This document shows, piece by piece, positions 1-11,081 of a stretch of DNA of 13,080 nt. The translations under genes were made by a program, and so were the position numbers. The notes under the pieces are model-generated. The model saw only the letters and a list, made by a program, of their open reading frames with translations. It ran no database searches and was not told the origin of the DNA. This DNA comes from a virus (lineage: Duplodnaviria; Heunggongvirae; Uroviricota; Caudoviricetes): IMG/VR virus record IMGVR_UViG_2563366976_000005; one strand, given 5' to 3'. How positions within the stretch are numbered: position 1 is the stretch's first letter; each line of letters begins with the position of its first letter.

Positions 1-1284
1 TTACTTCTTCGCCTCTGCAACCACTTTACTACCCACGCCGCGGTTATTGTATTCCCACATGCGGTTGTAGTTAGTGTCATTCAGATTGCGCTGTATTTCG
101 TCGTTATCATCTACGCTGCCGGTATTACCCGCAAACGGACGATTAGAGATCACCGCATCGGCCCACGGTTTAGCCGTGTTAAAACCTTCGTTGATGGCGC
201 TATCACGGATCACCACCTGACCGTTGGTATTGGCATCAACATCCAGCGAGCGGCCCAGTTGCGCCACACCATCACCGAAAGCATTGAAACGGCTGTTTAC
301 GGCGAGGAAACCGTAGTAAATGTTGGACAGCGTAGCCGGTGCAAACACATACGCTTCTTGCTGAGTACGTGAGTTCACCACGCGGAATTCGGTGTTATCG
401 AACACCACTGCGCCGCGACCAGAAACGATATCCACATCCCCTTCAATGTAGCTGTTGGTCACCAGCGTACGCGGCTGACGATTCGTTTCCAGACGGTTCT
501 GCACACCGCTGTTGGTGACAAAGAAGGTGTTCTGACGACCGAGAATGTTAACGTTGTTAATCTGTACCTGGTCACCATCAGTACGCAGTGCCACCGCCGG
601 ATGGTTACCTGCATCTACGCTATCGCCCAGCGTGTTTTCGATGGTCAGATTTTGCAGTTGCAGGCCATTGTTTTGTGACCAGAAGACCGCAGAGCAGAGA
701 ACACCGATACTGTCGCTGCGTTTGCTCTGGCAGCTATCGTACATATACCACGCTGGTTTACCTGGCATATATTTGCCGCGCGGGTTGACGTCGTGACGCC
801 AGTCGGCAGGGCTCATGCCACCATCAAGGGAAAGCCCAATCTTCACATCAATCGGTTTTTCACCTGTACCGTACAGAGTAATTCCACCCGGAGCGGCAGG
901 GACATATACCGTTCCCTGATACTCACCAGGCATCACGGCAATATACTGGCGCTTGTTGGTACGCTTGATAATTGCCGCATCTACCGCCGCCTGAATCGTG
1001 GTATGCGTTACACCTTGAGTGCCCGCCGGGCCGACAACAAAGTCAGGTTGCGCAGGCAGGGTAATCGGGGAAGGATTCCACGCTGCAGCACCTGGTGTCA
1101 GGGATGCAAAATAGTGTTGAGCATCGAAATTCTGCGCTTCTTTTGCCGACAGAATCGGGCGAGAAGAGGTACCAGGCGCGGTTTGATCAGAAGGACGTTG
1201 ATCGGGCGGGGTTGAGCTACAGGCGGTCAGCGTCACGCCAAAAGCCAATGCCAGCGCCAGACGGGAAACTGAAAATGTGTTCAC
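1..1284 (-). CDS. ybhC: YbhC outer-membrane lipoprotein (pectinesterase-family acyl-CoA thioesterase), host gene flanking attB-lambda
   Basis: Full 427-aa ORF with a lipoprotein signal (LTACSS lipobox). The sequence matches the E. coli YbhC that I recall. It lies immediately next to the lambda att core, as in the chromosome order ybhC-attB-ybhB-bio. Confidence 0.9.
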   Translation of the reverse strand: MNTFSVSRLALALAFGVTLTACSSTPPDQRPSDQTAPGTSSRPILSAKEAQNFDAQHYFASLTPGAAAWNPSPITLPAQPDFVVGPAGTQGVTHTTIQAAVDAAIIKRTNKRQYIAVMPGEYQGTVYVPAAPGGITLYGTGEKPIDVKIGLSLDGGMSPADWRHDVNPRGKYMPGKPAWYMYDSCQSKRSDSIGVLCSAVFWSQNNGLQLQNLTIENTLGDSVDAGNHPAVALRTDGDQVQINNVNILGRQNTFFVTNSGVQNRLETNRQPRTLVTNSYIEGDVDIVSGRGAVVFDNTEFRVVNSRTQQEAYVFAPATLSNIYYGFLAVNSRFNAFGDGVAQLGRSLDVDANTNGQVVIRDSAINEGFNTAKPWADAVISNRPFAGNTGSVDDNDEIQRNLNDTNYNRMWEYNNRGVGSKVVAEAKK

Positions 1285-2710: not shown

Positions 2711-2732
2711 GAAAAAACCGCCATCAGGCGGC
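2711..2732 (-). terminator. Rho-independent terminator for leftward (pL-distal) transcription, just upstream of xis
   Basis: On the - strand the sequence reads GCCGCCTGATGGCGGTTTTTT. This is a 5-6 bp GC stem with a 4-nt loop followed by a T6 run. Confidence 0.55.
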
Positions 2733-2901
2733 TTGGTGTTCTTTCAGTTCTTCAATTCGAATATTGGTTACGTCTGCATGTGCTATCTGCGCCCACAGCA
2801 TCCAGTGGTTATAGCAGTCGCTGATGTTCTCGGCTTCGATAACTCTGTTGAATGGTTCTCCATTCCATTCACCTGTAACTCGGAAGTGCATTTATCATCG
2901 C

Positions 2902-2960
2902 CATAAAACAAAACTCGCCGTAGCGAGTTCAGATAAAAGAAAACCCGCACTCGGCGGGTT
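2902..2960 (-). terminator. Tandem pair of rho-independent terminators on the - strand
   Basis: Hairpin A is CCCGC-ACTCG-GCGGG (2944-2958), followed on the - strand by TTTCTTTTATCT. Hairpin B is ACTCGC-CGTA-GCGAGT (2914-2929), followed on the - strand by TTTGTTTTATGG. Confidence 0.5.
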
Positions 2961-3239
2961 CGCATTCGTTCAAATTGCGTTTACTTCTTGGCGTTCTGTT
3001 CATCCATATCGATATACCATGGGTTGCTTCCCTTGGGCATGTTTAACGACTGCTCGCGATAGTATCTGATGCGCTCCATGAAATACTCGCGTGAGTGCTC
3101 AGGTTGCTCTCATGATACCTGCTCAGTGATAACAGGTATGTTAAGGCGCTCTCTGTACTCCATGCCTGATGCTGCAAGGTCAACGTTTACCTTGTTCTGT
3201 TTTTCTTTCGATTTCTCGGCGATGTTATGCCTGACATTG

Positions 3240-3524
3240 TCAACCCGCCTCCTTCTGAACATAACGGTTATAAATCAGTCCCTGAGGGCCATAAGGAAGC
3301 GGGATGTGCAACTCCTCTGGTTCAGAAACTATCCATTCCCCGGCCATCTCCGCTGGAGAGGTAATGATAAGTTGTTTGCTAATAAAAGGACCACTCCTCT
3401 CAACAACAAGCTTACCATCTTCATTAATAAAAGCTTGGATGTCAGGTGTGCTTCCACACTTGGTGATGCAGCGTTTGAACATTTTGTGTCCCCCCATTTT
3501 ATGGACGGGGTAATTATAACACAT
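3240..3524 (-). CDS. Hypothetical small protein in the ea8.5 position. The true start is more likely the internal M (MFKRC...) at about 3482, which has a GGGGGA Shine-Dalgarno
   Basis: ORF of 94 aa (80 aa from the SD-supported start), in a low-GC region. It occupies the lambda ea8.5 position between xis and the ea22 neighbourhood. I cannot confirm homology from memory. Confidence 0.4.
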   Translation of the reverse strand: MCYNYPVHKMGGHKMFKRCITKCGSTPDIQAFINEDGKLVVERSGPFISKQLIITSPAEMAGEWIVSEPEELHIPLPYGPQGLIYNRYVQKEAG

Positions 3525-3608: not shown

Positions 3609-4184
3609 TCACCCATCTTGCTGCGGTGCTACTATTGAAAAGTACTCACACCCTTTAGCCCAAATAGTTTTGATAGTTGTCCAACTGACTGGAACCTTGA
3701 TTTCGATTCTTCCGCTGCCGTCACAAGTTTCGCAATCATCATCACCAAAGCATTCCGGGCAGCTTATAAACGTAGTTTCTGAAAATTCACCGGATAGCAC
3801 ACCCTTAGCGCCGTTCTCAGCGGTTAGTTTCTTCGGCACTATAACCCAACCATCCGGAGTTACCGGAGAATTGCCATTTATATCGAAGTTTGGCTCTGCG
3901 TCCTGAACCAGGAGGATGTAACCATTCTTGGCAGTATCAAGTTCTAACGCCTCGGTGACGGTACCGAAATAGCGATTACCTAAATCCGCATCACAAGTGC
4001 TTACATCAATGGAAACCTCCATGCCTTCGATTAATTCTGGCAAGTTGTAAGTTTGGCTTACAGGTTCTGCTCCCAGTGATGCCAGTGCAATTCGTGCCAG
4101 TTCCATTTGTTCGCCACGAGTAAGCCCGTTTTCAAGCGGATTTTTAATGAACAATTCAATACGTTCTTTGGTAATAGTGGTCAT
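3609..4184 (-). CDS. Hypothetical protein (191 aa) with a C-terminal DnaJ-type CxxCxGxG zinc-ribbon motif (CPECFGDDDCETCDGSGRIE)
   Basis: Clean ORF with an AAGGA Shine-Dalgarno 7 nt upstream of the ATG. It starts 10 bp after the stop of the upstream TGT-like gene, so they form an operon. GC content is lower than in the lambda core genes. Confidence 0.7.
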   Translation of the reverse strand: MTTITKERIELFIKNPLENGLTRGEQMELARIALASLGAEPVSQTYNLPELIEGMEVSIDVSTCDADLGNRYFGTVTEALELDTAKNGYILLVQDAEPNFDINGNSPVTPDGWVIVPKKLTAENGAKGVLSGEFSETTFISCPECFGDDDCETCDGSGRIEIKVPVSWTTIKTIWAKGCEYFSIVAPQQDG

Positions 4185-4194
4185 TTGTTAGTCC

Positions 4195-4950
4195 TTAAAC
4201 TGCTAGTTGCAATTGCATTTCAAAGCGGTCGCGTTGTTCACAATACGCAAGAGAACCAGGGCTATTGTGTGCCTCAATCCGTTCTACCATTAATGCTGCG
4301 CGTGTCTCTTTACTTGCAGGTGCATAAGCCCCAGACCAGGCTTTATCAATACCGATGTTTCGAGCGACGTTCGTACTATCTGCGCTGGCTAAGGGTAATT
4401 TTGTGAATATCAGCGGATTTAACATGCGCAATCCATGTAGTTTCGTAACCGGCTGACCATGCCCATCAACAATGTGACGAATCAGGTCTTTCATTCTGGC
4501 TACCGCAAGAGTTGGGCGCTTTACGTCATAGTCGCCACAACTACCGATAGCCACTCGCGGAAACTCATTGCACAAATGAATAAATCGCTCGTCACTTTCA
4601 TTCATGTGCCACACTGGAACGCCAGCTAGTTTTCCGTGAGGCCACTCATTCAGAAGCGCATCATTTTCCTCCTCTCCGCCATCAATAACATCCGGGATAA
4701 TGGCAAAATCGAATCCTGGGTGATTCTTCCAGCGAGCAACAAACTCGTAGTAATCGCTCCAGTCGATTTTGTTTTTGCCAGCTGCTTTCCAGGCGGTGAA
4801 TGCACCGTTGTCCAGCGCGAACGACTGACAGTATTCAGCCGCGAGATTGATCTGGCCTGAATGCGCAAAACTGATAAACGCATGTCGCCCTTTCCATGCT
4901 CTCATTGCGCACGTATCAGGAGTAATAGGCCCACCGTGGTAGTGAATCAT
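4195..4950 (-). CDS. tRNA-guanine transglycosylase (TGT)/DpdA-like protein, 251 aa. This is a candidate 7-deazaguanine DNA transglycosylase
   Basis: An AAGGAG Shine-Dalgarno precedes the ATG at 4950 (MIHYHGGP...). The ORF track extends a 265-aa version to 4992, overlapping the upstream gene. Four motifs occur in the same order and similar spacing as the bacterial TGT catalytic core that I recall: LDNGAF resembles TDSGG(F/Y)Q (nucleophile Asp), RVAIGSCG resembles YAVGGLAVG, KLHGLRM resembles HYLMGVG, and ADSTNVARNIG resembles FDCVLPTRSGRNG (second catalytic Asp). There is no C-terminal Zn subdomain, consistent with minimal phage DpdA-type enzymes. Confidence 0.5.
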   Translation of the reverse strand: MIHYHGGPITPDTCAMRAWKGRHAFISFAHSGQINLAAEYCQSFALDNGAFTAWKAAGKNKIDWSDYYEFVARWKNHPGFDFAIIPDVIDGGEEENDALLNEWPHGKLAGVPVWHMNESDERFIHLCNEFPRVAIGSCGDYDVKRPTLAVARMKDLIRHIVDGHGQPVTKLHGLRMLNPLIFTKLPLASADSTNVARNIGIDKAWSGAYAPASKETRAALMVERIEAHNSPGSLAYCEQRDRFEMQLQLAV

Positions 4951-4951
4951 C

Positions 4952-5359
4952 TCACTCTCCTTTGATGCGAATGCCAGTAGCGCGGATTGCATCGATGACT
5001 TCAGAAACTTTGTATGCCATTACCGTTTGGTAATCATCGTGAAAATCTGTTCGATGAAGCATGCTGCTACGTTCCGGGAGCAGTATTTCCCGCGCTTCCA
5101 GTTCTGCAATGCGCTTTTTTGCTGCTTCCAGTTCATCCAGTAATTCCAGCACGGTAGCCGGATTAGCCTTGGCAACAAAATCCCGGACTGGCTTACAATC
5201 AATCTCCGCAATGGGTTGATACGATGTGTAGCCATGCTGTCTTGTATAACTACCGTGACGAATAACGAAAAAATCACCATTTATTTTTTTAGCCTGCCAC
5301 TTATCTTCACCGGCTTTCTCTGCCGCTTCACGCAGTGCCTGAGAGTTAATTTCGCTCAC
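4952..5359 (-). CDS. Ea22-like protein (short form, 135 aa) with a GTG start
   Basis: The N-terminus MSEINSQALREAAE and C-terminus ...GIRIKGE resemble lambda Ea22 termini as I recall them. The middle is a coiled-coil (LLDELEAAKKRIAELEAREI). The start codon is GTG, overlapping the TGA of the upstream orf73. Confidence 0.6.
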   Translation of the reverse strand: MSEINSQALREAAEKAGEDKWQAKKINGDFFVIRHGSYTRQHGYTSYQPIAEIDCKPVRDFVAKANPATVLELLDELEAAKKRIAELEAREILLPERSSMLHRTDFHDDYQTVMAYKVSEVIDAIRATGIRIKGE

Positions 5360-8837: not shown

Positions 8838-9218
8838 TCAGTCAGCCCAACCTGATTTCGAGTTTATTTGGGTTTCTGACATTGTGTATTTCTTAATCGT
8901 GTCATCGTTAAAAAGAATAGTAAGTTCTTTTTTCGTACCGTTCGTTCCATTATGGAATAATCCATAGAATGGAATAAAAGTGGTGCCATTAACTTTTACT
9001 TTTGCAAAGGCGTACTTCCAGATCTCGTTTCCACTGTCAGTATATGAAACAGCATCAGGAGAACCAAAGTAAGATTTAACCTCATTCTTGGTTGTTTTAC
9101 CTTCCTGAAGTTTAGACTGGACACTAATTTCAGTTTCATTTTTGAGTTGCTGGTTGCCTGAAGAAGCACACCCAGCCAATACAGATGCCATCATGGCAGC
9201 GATTAGGATTTTTCTCAT
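8838..9218 (-). CDS. Outer-membrane lipoprotein, 126 aa, with a BamE/SmpA-OmlA-like fold. It is a moron in the rex position and a candidate superinfection-exclusion protein
   Basis: Signal peptide plus lipobox (MRKILIAAMMASVLAGCASS). The pattern TTKNEVKSYFGSPD...EIWKYAF...ELTILFNDDTIKKY resembles the BamE pattern MTKQQV..LGTP...WFYVF...LTLTF. The gene is AT-rich, lies between cI and oL, and has its own terminator. Confidence 0.8.
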   Translation of the reverse strand: MRKILIAAMMASVLAGCASSGNQQLKNETEISVQSKLQEGKTTKNEVKSYFGSPDAVSYTDSGNEIWKYAFAKVKVNGTTFIPFYGLFHNGTNGTKKELTILFNDDTIKKYTMSETQINSKSGWAD

Positions 9219-10541: not shown

Positions 10542-11081
10542 ATGCAACCACTTACATACCAACAGACTAGCGGATTTATTCCGACTGCGGTGATAAATCG
10601 TTCTCAAACAAAACAAGCTCCAGGCCACGAAAAAATCCGTGATGCCGTCCGCGCCTGGTCGGCTGTAGATAATCAGGATGTCGTTGCCGCACTCATTGTG
10701 AATGAGTATCGGGAGCAGGGCGACGGCACCATCGATTTCCCTGATGATGTCAGCCGTGCACGCCAGAAGCTGTTCCGCTTCCTCGATAACAAATTCGATT
10801 CTGAAAAATACCGAAATAACGTGCGTGAACTGACCCCGGCAATTCTGGCGGTACTACCGCTGGAATATCGCGGTTACCTGGTTGAGCAGGATAGCTTCAT
10901 GACTCGGTTGGCTGAAATGGAAAAGGAACTCAGTGAGGCAAAACAGGCTGTCATTCTCAACGCACCACGCCACCAGAAACTGAAGGAAATGAGTGAAGGT
11001 ATTGTGTCGATGTTTCGTGTGGACCCGGATCTGGCTGGTCCATTAATGGCGATGGTGACCACCATGCTGGGGGCAATATGA
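10542..11081 (+). CDS. YdaT-family protein (a CII-analogue regulator, annotated in databases as toxin YdaT), 179 aa
   Basis: It lies directly downstream of cro with an AAGGAG Shine-Dalgarno. The segment ELTPAILAVLPLEYRGYL matches the Rac YdaT segment KLIPAILAILPRELRHRL that I recall. Its position equals lambda cII. Confidence 0.75.
   Translation: MQPLTYQQTSGFIPTAVINRSQTKQAPGHEKIRDAVRAWSAVDNQDVVAALIVNEYREQGDGTIDFPDDVSRARQKLFRFLDNKFDSEKYRNNVRELTPAILAVLPLEYRGYLVEQDSFMTRLAEMEKELSEAKQAVILNAPRHQKLKEMSEGIVSMFRVDPDLAGPLMAMVTTMLGAI

Follow-up and report, generated by a model that had tools for sequence, protein, structure and literature searches.

Introduction

The closest described counterparts of the gene considered here are the DpdA transglycosylases of phages. 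DpdA of Escherichia phage 9g alone inserts dPreQ0 into plasmid DNA in E. coli (PMC6884629), and in two phages whose dpdA lies next to precursor genes the proportion of guanine (G) replaced has been reported, with dPreQ0 standing in for 16.5% of G in Pseudomonas phage Iggy (PMC10484667) and dG+ for 7.55% of G in Pantoea phage Vid5 (PMC8306585). The dpdA genes of both Iggy and Vid5 adjoin folE, queD and queC, and that of Iggy also adjoins queE. Other phages carry DpdA as a singleton. The DNA of Salmonella phage 7-11 contains 50 dADG per 1e6 nucleotides, equal to 0.02% of G (PMC6884629), and that of Pantoea phage MED16 contains 354 dADG per 1e6 nucleotides, equal to 0.13% of G (PMC8306585); MED16 DpdA matches the tRNA-guanine transglycosylase (TGT) structure 2ASH at 99.2% in HHpred (PMC8306585). 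For the gamma-proteobacterial singleton cluster, Hutinet et al. (2019, PMC6884629) stated that the function "will require more studies". Here we describe a gene of this type, open reading frame (ORF) A, in the IMG/VR virus record IMGVR_UViG_2563366976_000005 (Caudoviricetes), a stretch of 13,080 nucleotides which was analysed in full and is referred to as the window. An earlier interpretation made from the letters of the sequence (the sequence-only reading) had proposed that ORF A, together with the neighbouring ORF B, forms a two-gene moron for 7-deazaguanine modification of DNA. The two ORFs, of 251 and 191 aa and 10 bp apart, were both present as described in that reading and are located as follows.

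4195-4950, minus strand: ORF A, assigned as a stand-alone phage DpdA-family (TGT-like) transglycosylase gene, 251 aa
4185-4194, minus strand: 10-bp spacer between ORF A and ORF B, TAAGGACTAACAAATG, which carries the AAGGA Shine-Dalgarno sequence of ORF B
3609-4184, minus strand: ORF B, EaA/Ea22-type mosaic gene, 191 aa, phrog_60

Family membership of ORF A

When compared with the PHROGs profiles, ORF A matched phrog_887 ("queuine tRNA-ribosyltransferase") with E=5e-104, and the same region of this profile was matched by the DpdA proteins of Iggy, Vid5, 7-11 and MED16. An alignment of the ORF A family was prepared from 49 diverse representatives, 33-55% identical to ORF A, and the resulting profile was compared by hhalign with a 25-sequence profile of Iggy/Vid5-type DpdA1 proteins. 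The two profiles aligned over 175 columns with a probability of 98.95% and E=1e-17, and the blocks paired (family/DpdA1) were LDNGAF/LDSGAF, PVWH/PCFH, KLHGL/KVHGF and SADST/SCDSS. With respect to individual phage genomes, tblastn of ORF A recovered proteins of 93% identity in BTP1, SPN3UB, S107 and related P22-like or lambdoid phages, of 68% identity in SfI and of 61% identity in a group of Vibrio phages, followed by the DpdA proteins of MED16 (38%, E=2e-34), Salmonella phage 7-11 (36%, E=2e-24) and Iggy (26%, E=1e-5). Copies from E. coli, Vibrio, Aeromonas and Shewanella are 65-69% identical to one another, which is unusually strong conservation for a phage accessory gene. The proposal that the 251-aa protein is a TGT/DpdA-superfamily enzyme was therefore borne out by phrog_887 and by the hhalign match to DpdA1, and these sequence comparisons give good support to ORF A being an intact transglycosylase of the phage DpdA family.

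This identification was already known, since the 93%-identical proteins of BTP1 and SPN3UB are listed as DpdA ("DpdA-only") in Supplementary Data 1 of Hutinet et al. (2019, PMC6884629). RefSeq names the BTP1 and SfI proteins "queuine tRNA-ribosyltransferase". The ORF A gene was present in 204 of 5426 complete E. coli genomes. The compact singleton DpdA clade to which it belongs, found in about 4% of complete E. coli genomes, falls into 813 clusters when grouped at 50% identity. The record OR850331.1 (1719 bp), labelled "Staphylococcus phage SA 1298 Kay", also encodes a protein with 93% identity to ORF A and is probably a mislabelled or contaminant sequence.

Active site, zinc site and predicted fold of ORF A

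All of the motifs quoted in the sequence-only reading were present in ORF A, and they do not reflect chance, as D47, H172, S189, D191 and S192 are invariant among the 49 representatives. In a mixed alignment that included the DpdA proteins of Iggy and Vid5, the invariant residues were D47, A50, H115, G136, H172, G173, P186, D191 and S192. The blocks that carry the putative catalytic residues are as follows.

4798-4815, minus strand: LDNGAF block, aa 46-51, with D47 as putative general acid/base and F51 as putative base-stacking residue
4606-4608, minus strand: H115, invariant His of the mixed alignment, at the end of beta strand 5, in the block paired with PCFH of DpdA1
4372-4386, minus strand: SADST block, aa 189-193, with D191 as putative nucleophile, aligned with SCDSS of DpdA1

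The remaining motifs lie at aa 133-139 (VAIGSCG), 172-176 (HGLRM) and 190-200 (ADSTNVARNIG). The mapping of these motifs onto TGT held for the two key Asp blocks, which align with Iggy-type DpdA; in the alignment to Iggy DpdA itself, D47, H115 and D191 correspond to D69, H138 and D212. In S. Montevideo DpdA both D95, the general acid/base with F99 four residues on, and D256, the nucleophile, are essential, and the base is read by D130 and H181 (PMC10164549). By position and by the DpdA1 alignment, the roles proposed for D47/F51 and D191 fit those of D95/F99 and D256 in S. Montevideo DpdA and of D280 in TGT. H115 is plausibly the counterpart of His181 of DpdA (PMC10164549) and of the conserved DpdA/DpdA1 His, missing from DpdA2, that is described in PMC6884629.

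No CxCxxC zinc motif was found in ORF A or in the DpdA proteins of Iggy, Vid5, 7-11 and MED16, whereas E. coli Tgt carries CxCxxC at residue 302. As judged from sequence, loss of the zinc subdomain in ORF A fits phage DpdA, in keeping with the sequence-only reading. An AlphaFold2 (AF2) model built from a shallow alignment was poor (pLDDT 67.7); the model built from the diverse representatives reached a pLDDT of 96.2 and a pTM of 0.92 and consists of eight strands alternating with helices. In the latter model D47 ends strand 3, H115 strand 5 and G136 strand 6, with H172-G173 placed on strand 7 and D191 on strand 8.

Genomic context of ORF A relatives

To describe the surroundings of ORF A relatives, one genome per species was taken, giving 80 loci with relatives 44-90% identical, and all neighbouring ORFs were clustered. 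The hosts range from Enterobacterales to Pseudomonas, beta-proteobacteria, Acidobacteria and Planctomycetota, and the loci are mostly prophages, as indicated by integrases and cI-like repressors nearby. No universal partner gene was found among the 80 species-level loci, the most frequent neighbour family being present in 20 of them.

A short membrane protein resembling YhhQ/Vut_1 (PF02592, E=8.8e-9, above the Pfam cut-off) directly adjoins the dpdA-like gene in 10 of 76 loci, and these neighbours come from unrelated phyla. YhhQ is the known preQ0 transporter (PMC6884629). Among the 50%-identity representatives, P0270 combines QueD/PTPS (PF01242) with a DpdA-like domain and P0233 combines a Dam methylase (PF02086) with a DpdA-like domain; since the first 30-40 residues are missing from the DpdA part of both, the two may be neighbouring genes joined by gene calling or by a frameshift. 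The ORF A homolog of Caulobacter phage DMCA is directly preceded by a QueD-like gene, which overlaps its start. A DNA C5 methylase stands beside the dpdA-like gene in loci L088, L089, L092, L100, L102 and L103, and an MT-A70-like methyltransferase ("YADPPWSY") does so in L039, L042, L046 and L050, an adjacency which suggests a common DNA-modification corner of the early region. The YhhQ-like, QueD-like and methyltransferase links tie the singleton clade to 7-deazaguanine precursors and DNA modification. Methyltransferase neighbours were frequent in Pseudomonas and in some Enterobacterales prophages.

A further neighbour, the phrog_37496 protein (about 81 aa, no Pfam match), abuts the dpdA-like gene in 20 of the 80 loci, often with a 4-nucleotide overlap. 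Its consensus is MNIYRHTF.A.CP.DGE.I.Y.LEI...VEHIK...HE.IAD.L...FGG.Q.I.A.HQGVEIETVRL, and its hosts are Pseudomonas, Acidovorax, Variovorax, Cupriavidus, Rhodoferax, Nitrosomonadales and a Bacteroidetes metagenome-assembled genome. It was found neither in the window nor in any Enterobacterales locus of the scan, and it is a candidate for a real DpdA partner in those other clades. The positions of these neighbours (locus and coordinates) are as follows.

L028:3537-4004, L054:3480-4004, L055:3170-3664, L057:1968-2450, L066:1278-1769, L073:1078-1545, L074:4747-5256, L083:2151-2633 and others: YhhQ/Vut_1-like neighbour
L023:4705-5726: fusion or QueD-linked locus
L059 (e.g. 3756-4004), L061, L066-L068, L070, L071, L073, L075, L077, L082, L089, L091-L093, L097, L099-L101, L103: phrog_37496 protein

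ORF B and its relationship to ORF A

ORF B matched phrog_60, the EaA/Ead-Ea22 mosaic family, with E=1.4e-41. It shares with the EaA, Ead-Ea22 and DUF550-DUF551 mosaic proteins of this family a common "GNSPV(T/I)PDGW" linker, but differs from other mosaics in its combination of leader, middle module and zinc-ribbon module, which was seen in no more than about 47 of the complete E. coli genomes. Two parts of the protein bear on its interpretation.

4061-4184, minus strand: leader module of ORF B, about aa 1-41, MTTITKERIELF...ELARIALASL, 82% identical to the N-terminus of phage S107 EaA
3702-3761, minus strand: zinc-ribbon motif CxxC-x6-CxxCxGxG, aa 142-161, CPECFGDDDCETCDGSGRIE

ORF B had been described as a DnaJ-type zinc-ribbon protein. 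The CxxCxGxG motif is indeed there, and the longer CxxC-x6-CxxCxGxG motif is kept in 100 of 120 ORF B homologs, but the likeness to DnaJ failed when repeated CxxCxGxG units and the Pfam zinc-finger model were looked for, ORF B having a single unit. A Pfam scan of ORF B gave nothing significant (Anti-TRAP, E=0.68). The name "molecular chaperone DnaJ" given by NCBI to ORF B homologs rests on that one motif. NCBI also splits the ORF B region (compare L001:6410-6985) into a 137-aa "molecular chaperone DnaJ" and a leader "pseudogene" fragment, and in other genomes the leader is likewise cut off DUF550 and DUF551 proteins; this split annotation is an artefact of the mosaic family.

Under the sequence-only reading the pair would be a co-inherited DNA-modification module in which the zinc-ribbon ORF B serves as targeting or specificity subunit. 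The 10-bp spacer and the shared strand speak for such a module, as does the observation that every close DpdA copy inspected (at least 93% identical) is followed, after the same 10-bp junction (TAAGGACTAAC(AAA/CCC)ATG), by a gene with the same leader, starting MTTITKE...; a zinc-ribbon-like ORF was also seen in 3 of the 80 species-level loci, upstream and within about 2 kb. The bodies that follow the leader in these near-identical copies, however, diverge completely after about 40 residues and consist of DUF550/MazG-like plus DUF551, of DUF551 alone, of EaA of 297 or 321 aa, or of the zinc-ribbon. Genome counts are likewise unequal: among the 5426 complete E. coli genomes the leader (a 134-nucleotide query, 4061-4194, spacer included) was found in 1230, part of the ORF B body in 668 and the whole body in 47; the DpdA gene was found in 204 and the whole arrangement, an identical 2.2-kb stretch with both ORFs, in 29. 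Many Ead/Ea22-like (PF13935-containing) proteins share 85-100% identity with the body of ORF B over their C-terminal two-thirds, and prophages without a DpdA gene within 3 kb harbour two homologs of ORF B, the full-length P0307 (92% identical) and the Ea22-fused P0349 (84% identical). Unrelated genes follow the ORF A orthologs of SfI, Eeyore and Vibrio phage D453, which are 61-68% identical, and the ORF B family was not among the neighbours recurring in the 80 species-level loci. This distribution largely refutes the module, and a targeting function of ORF B is very improbable. ORF B is an independent, freely shuffled accessory gene of the EaA/Ea22 type, made up of three modules that do not depend on DpdA. 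The practical outcome is negative, in that the zinc-ribbon ORF B is not worth pursuing as a DpdA partner. In other copies the leader is often followed by a MazG-like (DUF550) domain; a functional link between this domain and DpdA was also considered, and was dropped because the leader is six times commoner than the DpdA gene and the body is interchangeable.

Proposed role of ORF A and alternative explanations

ORF A is probably a compact, Zn-less, stand-alone phage DpdA, that is, a TGT-like (beta/alpha)8 DNA-guanine transglycosylase which would make use of host precursors. It would be transcribed within the leftward early (pL) operon, so that its product would be made after induction or infection. 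With D47 as putative general acid/base and D191 as putative nucleophile, the enzyme would remove guanine from double-stranded DNA via a covalent enzyme-DNA intermediate and would then put in its place a 7-deazaguanine from the FolE-QueD-QueE-QueC pool of E. coli, either preQ0 itself or a base closely derived from it. As the sequence-only reading had noted, no queC, queD, queE or folE was found among the ORFs of the window, nor in the annotation of the identical region, and any activity of ORF A would therefore depend on host precursors. By analogy with the closest tested relatives, dPreQ0 or dADG would probably be sparse, at well below 1% of G, and would not replace G in bulk, and the presumed benefit is protection from some restriction or other DNA-sensing defence. 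Phages 7-11 and MED16 are virulent and their DpdA proteins are only 36-38% identical to ORF A, so that their trace dADG is not simply transferable.

A number of results weigh against this role. In Pfam, PF01702 (TGT) included, no family was matched by ORF A at E<=1 and nothing relevant by its 49 relatives; ORF A had no match in NCBIfam and none in PADLOC at E<=10; and searches of PDB sequences with the single ORF A protein and with three family profiles gave no TGT/DpdA match. The profile search that had been suggested for ORF A was thus positive for the DpdA family (phrog_887, DpdA1) and negative for PF01702. The Pfam TGT model is likewise unmatched by the DpdA proteins of Iggy, Vid5, 7-11 and MED16 (0/4), and since proven phage DpdA1 enzymes miss Pfam too, the absence of a Pfam match is uninformative; the DpdA1 profile also gave no TGT/DpdA match in PDB. 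When the family or the DpdA1 profile was aligned by hhalign with a single E. coli Tgt sequence the result was not significant, with the non-significant DpdA1 alignment to that one sequence falling on TDSGGFQ. As for the third Asp, D87 reaches at least 90% conservation among family members, but the residue paired with the invariant Asp of DpdA1 is D90, itself not conserved within the ORF A family, so that the assignment of the base-recognising Asp (D130 of bacterial DpdA, D156 of TGT) to D87 or D90 is ambiguous. No dpdB, dpdC or dpdD-K was found in the window, and the missing dpdB counts here because bacterial DpdA requires the ATPase DpdB in vitro (PMC10164549). In tested singletons modified G amounts to only 0.02-0.13%, protection from restriction was not visible for MED16 (PMC6884629, PMC8306585), and the singleton mycobacteriophage Orion has no modification (PMC6884629, PMC8306585). 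In the literature we found no study of temperate lambdoid or P22-like members. Lastly, when the AF2 model was compared with PDB by Foldseek, tryptophan synthase alpha came first (E about 1e-3) and TGT 33rd (E=0.026).

The Foldseek ranking, in which the top matches were tryptophan synthase alpha and dehydroquinase with TM of about 0.45-0.5, could be taken to mean that ORF A is a generic TIM-barrel metabolic enzyme unrelated to TGT. In structure comparison of the model the longest aligned lengths were 205-218 residues, with generic TIM barrels close behind, at 13.2 and below. The fold evidence is consistent with a TGT-type barrel and is not decisive, and the family assignment rests on sequence profiles and genomic context; a generic barrel is hardly credible. 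Membership of the superfamily would also allow a substrate other than DNA, either host or phage tRNA, with an effect on queuosine status, or, as for Cap10, a 7-deazaguanine-protein conjugate, for example in anti-defence. Such a substrate is unlikely, as the sequence kinship is to the DNA-acting DpdA1 (hhalign E=1e-17) and not to Tgt or Cap10, there is no PADLOC or Pfam match, no Cap9/QueC-like or CD-NTase gene lies nearby, ORF A lacks the Zn subdomain and C-terminal parts of tRNA TGTs, and neighbours and fusion partners elsewhere are DNA methyltransferases.

ORF A might instead be a diverged derivative which no longer exchanges bases, such as a DNA glycosylase, a DNA-binding protein or a sink for bases of the preQ0 type, in which case there would be no stable modification and the trace dADG of the relatives would be incidental. 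The very low modification of 7-11 and MED16 and its absence from Orion (PMC6884629, PMC8306585) would agree with this, as would the ambiguous position of the base-recognition Asp. Both catalytic Asp residues and the His are invariant, however, in the 33-55% identical representatives and in DpdA1, the 65-69% identity across genera is unusually strong, and the neighbouring YhhQ-like and QueD-like genes speak for a 7-deazaguanine as substrate; we regard a non-exchanging derivative as rather improbable. It is likewise doubtful, though conceivable, that the singleton clade does not modify DNA in bulk against restriction but serves a novel role, laying down sparse sequence-specific 7-deazaguanine marks made from host precursors or acting on a non-DNA substrate, for instance in defence evasion or as a packaging or replication signal, and elsewhere maybe together with the phrog_37496 protein. 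The reading we favour is that of a stand-alone DNA-guanine transglycosylase.

Location of the gene pair within the prophage

A lambdoid prophage is integrated beside ybhC, and the window represents its left arm. The prophage, an E. coli lambdoid, is seated at the lambda attachment site adjoining that gene. The flanking genes referred to below are as follows.

1-1284, minus strand: ybhC
1418-2488: int
4952-5359, minus strand: Ead/Ea22-like gene upstream of ORF A, PF13935 E=2.6e-17

From left to right, int is followed by xis, a lambda orf55 homolog, the ORF A/ORF B pair and the Ead/Ea22-like gene, in which the match to lambda Ea22 is confined to the first 21 aa. To the right of the latter come a TraR/DksA-like gene, homologs of orf61, orf63 and orf60a, exo, bet and gam, and beyond gam a cI-like repressor, cro-like and YdaT-like genes and replication genes. 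The pair shares its orientation with int, xis, exo, bet and gam, and so is co-directional with the pL operon as had been claimed. The supposed ea8.5-like neighbour was not upheld: the 94-aa ORF at 3240-3524 is phrog_9613, and tblastn of lambda Ea8.5 against the window gave a best E of 2.7. NCBI labels ORF A "hypothetical protein" in the identical region of other E. coli genomes.

The mechanically called ORF of ORF A reaches 4992 and overlaps the ea22-like gene. Its start was set at 4950 because MIHYHGG begins 29 of 29 aligned homologs; GGAG lies seven bases 5' of this ATG, which is one base past the stop codon of the ea22-like gene. No promoter-like or terminator-like sites were found on the minus strand, the coding strand of the pair, between 2962 and 5636. 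The pair is therefore ordinary pL-operon cargo and not a self-contained moron, contrary to the sequence-only reading. A lower GC content than the lambda core, also claimed, did not hold in general, as the pair (0.470) is close to the whole prophage part (0.476), int (0.453) and the ea22-like gene (0.466) and is lower only than exo and bet (0.52).

Other features of the window were noted. Three strong terminator-like hairpins lie on the coding strand at 2715-2961 (minus), between a theta-like gene and xis/int, where they occupy the place of the lambda tI/sib region. The theta-like gene (about 2981-3262, minus strand) is a DNA polymerase III theta (HolE/HOT-like) gene; in strain SW070919, where the sequence is identical, NCBI marks it as a pseudogene that has an internal stop. 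At 8838-9218 (minus strand) there is an ORF for a 126-aa lipoprotein, annotated elsewhere as BamE-like, with a signal-peptide-like N-terminus with Cys; it sits in a patch of 37-40% GC between the gam/kil region and the cI-like repressor. As a true moron this ORF is more plausible than the ORF A/ORF B pair. A YdaT toxin-domain protein is encoded at 10542-11081 (plus strand), downstream of the cro-like gene and at the place of lambda cII. The immunity region is of the Rac or other-lambdoid type, not of the lambda type.

Comparison with known systems

Were the enzyme active, DNA marked with 7-deazaguanines from host preQ0 alone would be a property of a substantial minority of lambdoid and P22-like prophages, among them Stx1a-converting phages and the Salmonella ST313 phage BTP1. 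Such marking, if true, would be relevant to the evasion of restriction and defence, to artefacts in sequencing and to the engineering of phages. This prediction was published in 2019; what the window contributes is one more copy, not a new idea.

Of the systems with which ORF A can be compared, Cap10 of type IV CBASS (PDB 9NTN) shows 10% identity to ORF A. Cap10 acts with the QueC-like Cap9 on the N-terminus of a CD-NTase (PMC11996544); neither a Cap9/QueC-like nor a CD-NTase gene was found near ORF A. The tRNA TGTs (bacterial Tgt and archaeal ArcTGT; PF01702) have a Zn subdomain and tRNA-binding C-terminal domains, both of which are missing from ORF A, and in contrast to these enzymes the substrate of ORF A is likely DNA. 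The bacterial DpdA of S. Montevideo (PDB 7UI4) has 413 aa compared with the 251 aa of ORF A, and includes four barrel insertions and a CXCX2CX22H Zn site, none of which is present in ORF A.

The DpdA1 enzymes encoded with a full preQ0/G+ pathway (Iggy, Vid5 and the Escherichia phages 9g and CAjan) share the D, H, HG and DS positions with ORF A. ORF A is only about 20% identical to them, however, and is 55-60 aa shorter, without the N-terminal 20 or so aa and without the C-terminal insertion. The DpdA1 enzymes replace 7-30% of G, and such levels are not expected for ORF A.

As there is no folE, queD, queE or queC in the region, ORF A falls not in groups 1 or 2 but in group 3, the singleton or "DpdA-only" group of Hutinet et al. 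(2019), which includes the proteins of BTP1 (SIU02687), SPN3UB (YP_007011024), SfI (YP_009147480), HK106, 7-11 and SEN1; MED16 gp38 (PMC8306585) is a further singleton DpdA. ORF A and the singletons are alike in length class (234-261 aa), in their match to phrog_887 and in that the phages carry no preQ0 genes, and the singletons of P22-like and lambdoid phages also occupy the same position in the ea/early-left region. No substantive difference separates ORF A from this group, to which it corresponds in each of these respects.

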